Below, one piece after another: positions 54,054-64,000 of a DNA stretch of 64,000 bases (within the stretch, counting starts at the first letter, position 1; each line of letters starts with the position of its first letter). The notes under the pieces are model-generated. The model ran no database searches and was not told the origin of the DNA. It saw only the letters and a list, made by a program, of their open reading frames with translations. Location of the stretch: NCBI RefSeq assembly GCF_044647545.1, contig NZ_CP172818.1. One strand, given 5' to 3'. The stretch comes from Escherichia coli (GTDB lineage: Bacteria > Pseudomonadota > Gammaproteobacteria > Enterobacterales > Enterobacteriaceae). A program made the translations under genes and the position numbers.

Positions 54054-54466
<413 letters not shown>

Positions 54467-54508
54467 TGCGGATAATGACATGGAATATCCGGCATTATAT
54501 TTACAGCA

Positions 54509-60572: not shown

Positions 60573-61571
<999 letters not shown>

Positions 61572-61889
61572 TTTCTTGCGTTATTTTCGGCACCTTTTAT
61601 GTAGCGAAGGTGCCGGAATATGTTCTCTTTTGTTACTTATTTCTATACCGTGCACAATATTTTTACCCCTCATATTTATAGGGTAAATTACCTGTAAAGT
61701 AGTGTCTAATTACCCGCCTAGCAAATTCCCGTTTTCAAATATCTATTTCAGGTCAAAAGATTGAATTATTCACTGGCGACGATTCGTAAATTCGCTGGAT
61801 TTTTGACTAAAGTTTCTTTAGGATTTGTCTCATCGTATGATTAATTACACCAATCGTTCAACGTCTTGCTGATAAGTGATGGCGATTAT

Positions 61890-62030
61890 ATGAGGTTAGC
61901 AATGCCTTCTGGAAATCAGGAACCCCGCCGCGATCCTGAATTAAAACGTAAAGCCTGGCTGGCGGTTTTTCTTGGTTCTGCACTTTTCTGGGTGGTTATC
62001 GCACTGCTGATTTGGAAAGTGTGGGGATAA
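61890..62030 (+). CDS. ymiA: Small membrane protein YmiA (46 aa from ATG 61890; alternative in-frame ATG at 61902 gives 42 aa)
   Basis: Manual translation: M(RLAM)PSGNQEPRRDPELKRKAWLAVFLGSALFWVVIALLIWKVWG*; single hydrophobic helix; stop overlaps the yciX start (TAACTATG). Confidence 0.55.
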   Translation: MRLAMPSGNQEPRRDPELKRKAWLAVFLGSALFWVVIALLIWKVWG

Positions 62031-62032
62031 CT

Positions 62033-62200
62033 ATGGTCGGTCAGGAGCAACTGGAGTCGTCACCATTATGTCAGCATAGTGATAATGAACCAGAAACGAA
62101 ACGGGAATGTTCCGTCGTTATTCCAGACGACTGGCAACTAACATCGCAGCAGCAAGCCTTTATAGAACTGTTTGCTGAAGATGATCAGCCGAAACAATAA
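62033..62200 (+). CDS. yciX: Small acidic protein YciX (55 aa)
   Basis: ORF 62012-62200; MVGQEQLESSPLCQHSDNEPETKRECSVVIPDDWQLTSQQQAFIELFAEDDQPKQ from the internal ATG at 62033. Confidence 0.6.
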   Translation: MVGQEQLESSPLCQHSDNEPETKRECSVVIPDDWQLTSQQQAFIELFAEDDQPKQ

Positions 62201-62313
62201 TTATCATCATTCTTATTACCCATTTTTAATGAATTACAGGGCTTTTAATACACCGCAGCAATAACAGGTTGAGTTATCTCAACACAAAGTAATAACCGTT
62301 AAGGGTGTAGCCT

Positions 62314-62409
62314 ATGATCAACACAAATATGAAATATTGGTCCTGGATGGGCGCGTTTTCTCTGTCGATGCTCTTCTGGGCTGAACTCCTCTGGATCATT
62401 ACTCACTAA
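62314..62409 (+). CDS. Candidate 31-aa small membrane protein upstream of acnA
   Basis: ATG at 62314 preceded by aagggtgtag (weak RBS); encodes MINTNMKYWSWMGAFSLSMLFWAELLWIITH*; followed by a hairpin terminator. May correspond to a described K-12 small protein, but I cannot confirm the name. Confidence 0.4.
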   Translation: MINTNMKYWSWMGAFSLSMLFWAELLWIITH

Positions 62410-62415
62410 TCCCTG

Positions 62416-62437
62416 ACCCCGCTGCGGCGGGGGTTTT
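62416..62437 (+). terminator. Rho-independent terminator after the 31-codon ORF
   Basis: gaccccgc-tgcg-gcggggg followed by ttttcatttg. Confidence 0.65.
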
Positions 62438-62573
62438 CATTTGCTTTGCCACAAGGTTTCTCCTCTTTTATCAATTTGGGTTGTTATCAAATCGTTACGC
62501 GATGTTTGTGTTATCTTTAATATTCACCCTGAAGAGAATCAGGGCGTCGCAACCCTGTCATTAAGGAGGAGCT

Positions 62574-64000
62574 ATGTCGTCAACCCTACGAGAAGCCAGT
62601 AAGGACACGTTACAGGCCAAAGATAAAACTTACCACTACTACAGCCTGCCGCTTGCTGCCAAATCACTGGGCGATATCACCCGTCTGCCCAAGTCACTCA
62701 AAGTTTTGCTCGAAAACCTGCTGCGCTGGCAGGATGGTAACTCGGTTACCGAAGAGGATATCTACGCGCTGGCGGGATGGCTGAAAAATGCCCATGCTGA
62801 CCGTGAAATTGCCTACCGCCCGGCAAGGGTGCTGATGCAGGACTTTACCGGCGTACCTGCCGTTGTTGATCTGGCGGCAATGCGCGAAGCGGTTAAACGC
62901 CTCGGCGGCGATACTGCAAAGGTTAACCCGCTCTCACCGGTCGACCTGGTCATTGACCACTCGGTGACCGTCGATCGTTTTGGTGATGATGAGGCATTTG
63001 AAGAAAACGTGCGCCTGGAAATGGAGCGCAACCACGAACGTTATGTGTTCCTGAAATGGGGAAAGCAGGCGTTCAGTCGTTTTAGCGTCGTGCCGCCAGG
63101 CACAGGCATTTGCCATCAGGTTAACCTCGAATATCTCGGCAAAGCAGTGTGGAGCGAATTGCAGGACGGTGAATGGATTGCTTATCCGGATACACTCGTT
63201 GGTACTGACTCGCACACCACCATGATCAACGGCCTTGGCGTGCTGGGGTGGGGCGTTGGTGGGATCGAAGCCGAAGCCGCAATGTTAGGCCAGCCGGTTT
63301 CCATGCTTATCCCGGACGTAGTAGGCTTTAAACTTACCGGAAAATTACGTGAAGGTATTACCGCCACAGACCTGGTTCTCACCGTTACCCAAATGCTGCG
63401 CAAACATGGCGTGGTGGGGAAATTCGTCGAATTTTATGGTGATGGGCTGGATTCACTACCGCTGGCGGATCGCGCCACCATTGCCAATATGTCGCCAGAA
63501 TATGGTGCGACCTGTGGCTTCTTCCCAATCGATGCTGTCACCCTCGATTACATGCGTTTAAGCGGGCGCAGCGAAGATCAGGTCGAGTTGGTCGAAAAAT
63601 ATGCCAAAGCGCAGGGCATGTGGCGTAACCCGGGCGATGAACCGATTTTTACCAGTACGTTAGAACTGGATATGAATGACGTTGAAGCGAGCCTGGCAGG
63701 GCCAAAACGCCCACAGGATCGCGTTGCACTGCCCGATGTACCAAAAGCATTTGCCGCCAGTAACGAACTGGAAGTAAATGCCACGCATAAAGATCGCCAG
63801 CCGGTCGATTATGTTATGAACGGACATCAGTATCAGTTACCTGATGGCGCGGTGGTCATTGCTGCGATAACCTCGTGCACCAACACCTCTAACCCAAGTG
63901 TGCTGATGGCCGCAGGTTTGCTGGCGAAAAAAGCTGTAACACTGGGCCTCAAGCGGCAACCGTGGGTCAAAGCGTCGCTGGCACCGGGTTCGAAAGTCGT
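62574..64000 (+). CDS. acnA: Aconitate hydratase A, N-terminal 475 codons (gene runs off the window end)
   Basis: ATG at 62574 after a strong RBS (aaggagga); reads [55 protein letters not shown]..., the aconitase A N-terminus; no stop before the window end. Confidence 0.9.

Follow-up and report, generated by a model that had tools for sequence, protein, structure and literature searches.

In our study, the interval between cysB and acnA was found to hold the known small-protein operon ymiA-yciX-ymiC, whose genes had been annotated and experimentally validated beforehand. We consider it very likely that the whole interval is to be read as this operon, which E. coli shares with its relatives, together with the scheme of promoter, translational coupling and membrane-protein modulation proposed below. 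The window, that is the whole stretch of DNA analysed, comprises 64,000 nucleotides of Escherichia coli (contig NZ_CP172818.1). In its coordinates cysB ends at 61571 and acnA starts at 62574, and all the features described here lie on the plus strand. Three small coding sequences are annotated by RefSeq in this gap, ymiA (b4522 in K-12), yciX (b4523) and ymiC (b4741), and their coordinates match in an identical strain and in K-12. The original prediction had placed three ORFs of fewer than 60 codons between cysB and acnA; all three are present as RefSeq coding sequences, and the names it had offered for the first two, ymiA-like and yciX, agree with the annotation. Its remark that the supplied ORF track had mis-started some of them also held, as the first two begin there at TTG codons, at 61866 (54 aa) and 62012 (62 aa), respectively.

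The cysB-acnA interval of about 1 kb was found in 5421 of the 5426 complete E. coli genomes, and its identity with many complete genomes was 100%. The locus, the gene order and the offset-adjusted coordinates were the same in the window and in K-12, and the proteins were 98–100% identical; YmiA and YciX each differed in one residue, with nothing material changed. Short ORFs were abundant, with 62 ORFs of at least 20 aa in the 3.5 kb scanned around the locus, so that the presence of an ORF alone is not above chance. The three ORFs are raised above chance by cross-genus conservation, codon-level constraint, matches to curated HMMs and published experiments. As a discovery the finding has little weight, since annotation covers each of the three genes and experimental characterisation two of them. 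Its value is one of calibration, as a reading of the sequence alone recovered three true genes of fewer than 60 codons, which the ORF track had missed or mis-started.

The first gene, ymiA (61890–62030), encodes a 46-aa single-pass inner-membrane protein, as indicated by the RefSeq CDS, the Pfam and NCBIfam matches, pN/pS and PRM. Translation from ATG 61890 gives 46 aa and from the in-frame ATG 61902 gives 42 aa, with the stop codon at 62028–62030. YmiA was above the curated cutoffs of PF22868 (124.7 bits, cutoff 27) and NF000536 (96.4 bits, cutoff 30). It contained a single hydrophobic helix, LAVFLGSALFWVVIALLIW, with the best 19-aa Kyte-Doolittle window (mean 2.56) at residues 24–42, and seven K+R residues, mostly N-terminal, which form a basic tail ahead of the helix. 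This layout, a protein of about 42–57 aa with a basic tail followed by one hydrophobic helix, was common to the eight genera and to distant loci. By the positive-inside rule the N-terminus would be cytoplasmic, consistent with the N-terminal GFP fusions, and the published GFP-YmiA fusion was membrane-localised. Targeted proteomics (PRM mass spectrometry) has reported YmiA, given as 46 aa, at about 1000–3000 copies per cell. The single deletion of ymiA was reported to have no phenotype; overexpression of YmiA prolonged the lag and lengthened the cells. A single-helix membrane peptide of 42 to 46 aa had been predicted, and the two ATG codons, the hydropathy peak and the published membrane localisation of YmiA bear this out.

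The two start codons of ymiA were conserved to different degrees. The ATG at 61902 and its Shine-Dalgarno sequence GAGG, six nucleotides before it, were invariant in all eight genera, whereas the annotated ATG at 61890 was substituted by ACG in two of the eight. The NCBIfam model NF000536 comprises 42 positions, the first of which is the Met at ATG 61902. Initiation-complex profiling by Weaver et al., on the other hand, indicated that K-12 YmiA likely starts with MRLAMP, which corresponds to ATG 61890, as annotated. Both starts, giving 46 and 42 aa, may be in use, and the range of 42 to 46 aa is an apt hedge between the conserved start and the profiled one. The point bears on curation, because the universally conserved start gives the 42-aa protein, whereas the annotated, profiling-supported start of E. 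coli gives 46 aa.

The second gene, yciX (62033–62200), encodes a 55-aa soluble protein, as indicated by the RefSeq CDS, its position next to ymiA and its constrained C-terminal part; the ATG is at 62033 and the stop codon at 62198–62200. The yciX ATG had been predicted to overlap the ymiA stop codon, which was wrong: the junction reads TAA (62028–62030), CT and ATG (62033–62035), so that the two genes are adjacent with a gap of 2 nt. In every examined locus with yciX (nine distinct loci), including those of the three most divergent relatives, the yciX start codon followed the ymiA stop codon after 1–4 nt. The Shine-Dalgarno sequence GGGGA of yciX sits in the conserved final codons of ymiA (TGG GGA TAA; W-G-stop). 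Judging from this arrangement, yciX is probably translated by coupled re-initiation after ymiA. The description of its product as an acidic protein of 55 aa was right as to length, and as to acidity in E. coli, where YciX is hydrophilic with a pI of 4.05 and contains 12 D+E against 3 K+R residues, but the acidity is not conserved across the family. The Enterobacter orthologues have a pI of 8.7–9.8, owing to their lysine-rich N-terminal halves, and YciX was acidic only in Escherichia and Citrobacter.

The C-terminal part of YciX contained the conserved motif [IV]P..W.L[TS]..Q..FI..F, and residues P31, W34, L36, Q40, F43, I44, F47 and D50 were invariant among seven orthologues. In the AlphaFold2 model, built on a small alignment, the helix at residues 38–51 had a pLDDT of about 90, whereas residues 1–18 were below 50, so that the variable N-terminal part is predicted to be disordered; the confident helix coincides with the constrained C-terminal segment. 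This helix looks like a short binding motif, and together with the fixed, putative coupling to ymiA it provides a concrete starting hypothesis for the role of YciX. In one Salmonella study, yciX was among the Cpx-regulon genes up-regulated in egg white.

A profile of the seven YciX orthologues was searched against 1.84 billion representative proteins and matched 67 clusters, about 60 of which were stand-alone proteins of 38–100 aa with the same motif. The few long matches look like artefacts of multi-stretch and low-complexity regions. The three most divergent relatives were all found in a topA-cysB-ymiA-yciX-...-acnA context, in loci whose AcnA N-termini were 72–83% identical to that of E. 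coli, as distant as those of Rahnella and Yersinia. YciX is a narrow family of stand-alone proteins of about 55 aa that lie beside ymiA at the loci examined. The ymiA-yciX pair is therefore of greater age and wider distribution than the sample of Enterobacteriaceae had suggested, and its retention is patchy. Searches with PADLOC, PHROGs and PDB sequences found nothing significant for YmiA, YciX, YmiC or the YciX profile.

The third gene, ymiC (62314–62409), encodes a 31-aa Trp-rich single-pass membrane peptide, as indicated by the RefSeq CDS, the Pfam and NCBIfam matches and tagging, with the ATG at 62314, the stop codon at 62407–62409 and the motif KYWSW..AFS.S.LFW. YmiC was above the curated cutoffs of PF23694 (87.5 bits, cutoff 27) and NF041484 (66.3 bits, cutoff 42), and hydropathy indicated one hydrophobic helix. 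Positional analogues of YmiC in two distant loci fell below the family cutoff. In published work the chromosomally tagged protein was detected, tetracycline ribosome profiling was positive and a GFP-YmiC fusion was membrane-localised; the single deletion of ymiC had no phenotype and overexpression of YmiC had no effect. Some E. coli strains carry an IS1 inserted within ymiC. The translation-initiation data that the original prediction had named as a check have already been published, as initiation-complex profiling covers both ymiA and ymiC.

For the comparison across relatives, loci were collected with a search of the AcnA N-terminus, which gave eight Enterobacteriaceae and seven other Enterobacterales loci among the matches listed. 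This AcnA-anchored set comprised at least 15 usable Enterobacterales loci, the rest being mostly distant Proteobacteria, and Salmonella and Klebsiella were outside it. The ymiA gene was present in two Citrobacter species, four Enterobacter species and Superficieibacter. The yciX gene was present in the same two Citrobacter and four Enterobacter species and absent from Superficieibacter, and ymiC was present in the four Enterobacter species and Superficieibacter and absent from the two Citrobacter species. Citrobacter contained neither ymiC nor the terminator that follows it in E. coli. E. albertii was devoid of ymiA, yciX and ymiC; it showed a clean loss of the three ORFs and kept the terminator and a remnant of the block upstream of ymiA, GGGATTTGTCTCATC. 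None of the three ORFs was found in Rahnella, Acerihabitans, Photorhabdus, Yersinia and Providencia, including the cases in which cysB and acnA have stayed neighbours. From the losses in E. albertii, Citrobacter and Superficieibacter and the IS1 insertions, the cluster is dispensable in nature.

In Enterobacter, Citrobacter and Superficieibacter the true frames stayed open, and changes at third codon positions were in excess. The pN/pS (Nei-Gojobori counts, codon alignments) was 0.23 for YmiA, 0.53 for YciX and 0.38 for YmiC, against 0.93–2.36 in the wrong frames, which contained stop codons in most species, although the true-frame proteins served as the basis of the codon alignments, which biases this test somewhat toward that frame. 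For YmiC the wrong frames gave 0.93 and 1.35, with stop codons in five to six of the six species. The codon-level conservation that had been named as a check was thus found. It also bears on whether one or more of the ORFs could have stayed open by chance within a conserved regulatory spacer and make no functional protein, which we regard as extremely unlikely. The weakest of the three is yciX: neither Pfam nor NCBIfam holds a model that matched YciX, its N-terminal half is near-neutral (pN/pS 0.72), it is the gene missing from Superficieibacter, and AlphaFold2 confidence is low over half of the protein. Against a chance frame, the C-terminal 26 residues gave 0.31 compared with 1.3–2.4 in the wrong frames, the motif and size recur in the stand-alone clusters of the profile search, and yciX stays beside ymiA in very divergent genomes. 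The start-site profiling paper, which examined the yciX and ymiA starts, also discusses a proteomic peptide from yciX.

A conserved non-coding block, presumed to be a promoter or regulatory region, was found upstream of ymiA at 61786–61845 in the alignment of eight genera. It contained the invariant TTAGGATTT at 61818–61826 and a -10-like TATGAT at 61836–61841. This block probably holds the promoter of the operon, with predicted positions for its -10 element, its -35 element and the start of transcription. Polymorphisms in the cysB/ymiA intergenic region, seen in silver-nanoparticle evolution, are uninformative on function since control populations carry such changes too. In published reporter fusions, PhoQ-dependent activity was found upstream of the operon and the activity directly upstream of ymiC was negligible; the authors of the reporter study describe a ymiA-yciX-ymiC operon. 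By Ribo-RET, 17 small proteins showed an induction of at least 3-fold at low Mg2+, YmiA and YmiC being two of them. A search upstream of ymiA for the PhoP box (KGTTTA-N5-KGTTTA) gave only matches with three mismatches, at 61804 and 61815, and across the window 193 such matches were found where 149 were expected. Direct control of ymiA by PhoP is without sequence support, since the upstream matches, with three mismatches, are at chance level; the reporter paper mentions no PhoP box.

The yciX-ymiC spacer of 113 nt contained the conserved motif ATACAC..CAGCAAUA, followed 12–20 nt later by a hairpin, GTTGAG-TTAT-CTCAAC (62268–62283), which was found in single-sequence folds and in the Rfam consensus. 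This hairpin was present at the same relative position in six genera with a different sequence in each, and it belongs to the consensus structure of the Rfam family STnc180. MAFFT and RNAalifold yielded no consensus structure for the spacer because of indels. Past ymiC, an intrinsic terminator (62417–62442) was found by the terminator scan and by folding, and reads CCCCGC-TGCG-GCGGGG followed by GTTTTCATTT. Its hairpin (62417–62432) has a 6-bp all-GC stem that starts 7 nt past the ymiC stop codon and is followed directly by the U-tract GUUUUCAUUU, with a folding energy of -14.5 kcal/mol. The prediction of a 31-aa hydrophobic peptide followed by a clean intrinsic terminator was accurate, ymiC and this GC hairpin being the two elements. 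Five genera as well as E. albertii have retained the hairpin, and among seven taxa six of nine pairs stayed paired despite changes on both sides. The published 3'-end lists, as far as they are available to us, hold no end between K-12 positions 1333823 and 1335835, in cultures that were not Mg2+-limited; the operon may be poorly expressed in those cultures.

The ymiC leader, the ymiC coding sequence and the terminator together gave a full-length match to the Rfam family RF02079 'STnc180' (62241–62444), with a covariance-model score of 204.9 bits against a gathering threshold of 50 and model positions 1–208 of 208 covered. STnc180 was described by Sittka et al. (2008) as a cDNA cluster from Hfq co-immunoprecipitation in Salmonella, and the same study saw only bands of 500–2000 nt and no short RNA and judged STnc180 likely to be a processed mRNA. 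Signals of this size fit the operon transcript of about 600 nt. STnc180 is filed as a non-coding sRNA, whereas the matched region here encodes the validated YmiC under purifying selection, and in other genera RF02079 matched only where ymiC exists. As a discrete non-coding sRNA, STnc180 was therefore rejected, since it contains this selected and validated coding sequence and the founding study found only the long species. For curation, RF02079 is essentially the ymiC coding region with its terminator.

A related proposal treats the region as a dual-function RNA that would encode YmiC and, as a structured and Hfq-associated molecule, also regulate in its own right; we consider this unlikely. 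It gains from the full-length Rfam match, from the first recovery of the region by Hfq co-immunoprecipitation and from the ymiC leader, where the hairpin is conserved in position and A-rich AAUAA motifs occur. The Rfam helices within the ymiC coding sequence were 79% paired against 31–51% in slid controls, and one of them showed three compensatory pairs in the six-genus alignment, but the sample was six related sequences, and the pairing is inflated because the structure itself was derived from their clade. The outer ACACC/GGUGU helix, which would reach the ymiC Shine-Dalgarno sequence, was broken in four of the five other genera, the founding authors favoured a processed mRNA, and most of the sequence conservation is explicable by coding constraint alone.

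The position of ymiC ahead of acnA also raises its relation to that gene. It is very unlikely, in our estimate, that ymiC is mainly an upstream ORF, translated in order to govern termination at the hairpin and through it the expression of acnA, with the peptide incidental. A sigma-38 promoter, P1acnA, reportedly starts 407 nt upstream of acnA, presumably at about window position 62167 inside yciX, and such a start would place ymiC and its terminator in the acnA leader. The short distance from the ymiC stop codon to the stem in E. coli would suit control of this kind, and Adams et al. name ymiC-acnA as a candidate uORF-dependent regulatory sequence. The 3' end of Adams et al., however, is at K-12 1335835 (window 62577), away from the hairpin and already 4 nt into acnA, and it is not Rho-dependent. 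Depending on the genus, the ymiC stop codon and the terminator were between 7 and about 68 nt apart, which argues against a fixed geometry of ribosome occlusion, and no antiterminator competes, since the terminator is preserved in the MFE fold and in the centroid fold of ymiC with its terminator. Citrobacter retains the acnA promoter block without ymiC or terminator, whereas E. albertii has the terminator without ymiC. The peptide, moreover, is under purifying selection with its KYWSW..LFW motif conserved and is membrane-localised as a GFP fusion, and the reporter region just upstream of ymiC was nearly inactive. Attenuators of the mdtU-mdtJI type share with ymiC the arrangement of a short ORF and then a terminator ahead of a larger gene; ymiC differs from them in its conserved and membrane-targeted peptide, its variable geometry and its lack of an alternative RNA fold.

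A different link to acnA would be read-through. In this proposal STnc180 is an Hfq-associated structured RNA, and a leaky terminator, with the interrupted U-tract UUUUCAUUU, would let PhoP-driven transcription that starts at the ymiA promoter pass into acnA, which seems to us improbable. If it were true, Mg2+ and envelope stress would be tied to the level of aconitase A, and the reported PhoP dependence of acnA in Salmonella could be explained without recourse to the weak PhoP site in the acnA promoter. Closer to acnA, the promoter P2, which we take to lie at -50, is indirectly consistent with the reported +1 'U then C' at 62524–62525.

In the small-protein operon that we favour, one promoter upstream of ymiA would drive the three genes and, through PhoQ, respond to low Mg2+, and a transcript of about 600 nt would end at the GC hairpin and U-tract past ymiC. 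YmiA, of 46 or 42 aa, would span the inner membrane and leave its basic N-terminal tail on the cytoplasmic side. YciX would be made as a soluble protein by coupled re-initiation 2 nt past the ymiA stop codon, its C-terminal helix being the sole constrained part. YmiC, too, would cross the membrane once, with its N-terminus in the cytoplasm by the positive-inside rule, and would have a ribosome-binding site of its own past the structured 113-nt spacer. YmiA, YmiC and YciX may then be small proteins that are induced by envelope stress and, in the manner of MgrB and MgtS, bind larger membrane proteins and tune them, which would be their most likely role. The likeness to regulators of transporters or sensor kinases, drawn in the original prediction for the hydrophobic peptides, stands as an analogy.

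The comparison with MgrB and MgtS shows both differences and likeness. MgrB and MgtS have defined partners, whereas for YmiA and YmiC no partner has been reported and the deletions are without phenotype, and there is no sequence similarity between the two pairs. In their general properties the proteins are alike, as MgrB, MgtS, YmiA and YmiC are all single-pass inner-membrane proteins of at most 50 aa whose induction by low Mg2+ requires PhoQ, and overexpression of YmiA prolongs the lag, as is the case with MgrB and MgtS.

The conserved non-coding block at 61786–61845, the presumed promoter and regulatory region of the ymiA-yciX-ymiC operon, was found to overlap a 27-aa frame with a TTG start (61761–61844; …IRKFAGFLTKVSLGFVSSYD), the translation of which was seemingly conserved in Citrobacter and Enterobacter. 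The start codons of this frame varied and the substitutions were not concentrated at the third position; the conservation therefore most likely reflects a promoter conserved as DNA.

Loss and disruption of the operon were found within Escherichia. In Escherichia albertii NBRC 107761 (L004, 2339–2600) ymiA-yciX-ymiC was cleanly deleted; the spacer between cysB and acnA was just ~260 bp, but the ymiC terminator was retained, as was a vestige of the promoter block upstream of ymiA. In Escherichia coli 2023CK-01509 (L083, 1043–1833) the 3' end of ymiC was interrupted by the insertion of an IS1A element, and RefSeq annotates the gene as a partial pseudogene. IS1 was also present between cysB and acnA in several further E. 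coli strains, in one of which ymiA and yciX were gone from the match. The ymiC position of two distant Enterobacterales was occupied by a Trp-rich ORF of 28–30 aa followed by a terminator (L085, 2853–2939; L087, 2731–2823). Against the Pfam model of YmiC (PF23694, cutoff 27 bits) these ORFs scored below the cutoff (14.4 bits) or were unmatched, and they could be either highly diverged YmiC or independent replacements.

Elsewhere in the window, ~370 nt of nearly pure poly(A) was found between rluB and cobO/btuR (54090–54467); its 5' margin carried short runs that were T-rich or AT-rich. The flanks from rluB to cobO/btuR spanned 1301 bp in the window, whereas they spanned ~885 bp in other complete E. 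coli genomes, and none of 5426 E. coli genomes covered at least 80% of the query for this region in a BLAST search, in which the low-complexity filter would mask the poly(A) itself. The window thus contains ~416 nt of extra sequence, apparently either a low-complexity insertion or an artefact of sequencing or assembly.

Upstream of acnA, the TTATCAATTTGGGTTGTTATCAAATCGTTACG block (62466–62500), which contains a direct repeat of TTATCAA, was near-invariant in all the taxa compared, including E. albertii, Citrobacter, and the distant Enterobacterales. This block probably serves as a transcription-factor site in the proximal promoter of acnA. The acnA 5' UTR (62528–62577) contained conserved CCCTG (62528–62532), CAGGG (62541–62545), and CCCTG (62554–62558) elements, which could form two mutually exclusive hairpins immediately 5' of the Shine-Dalgarno sequence. 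An RNA 3' end mapped in the literature (K-12 position 1335835) corresponds to 62577, 4 nt inside acnA.

The published +1 of acnA, a U followed by a C, is compatible with 62524–62525, i.e., −50 relative to the ATG. The candidate −10 element TATCTT (62512–62517), which is likely that of P2, is overlapped by TGTTTGTGTTATCTTTA (62503–62519), a match to the PhoP box with two mismatches that was unchanged upstream of acnA across nine taxa. This sequence is exactly identical to the published site in the Salmonella acnA promoter, where TGTTTGTGTTATCTTTA was reported to be bound by PhoP (EMSA).
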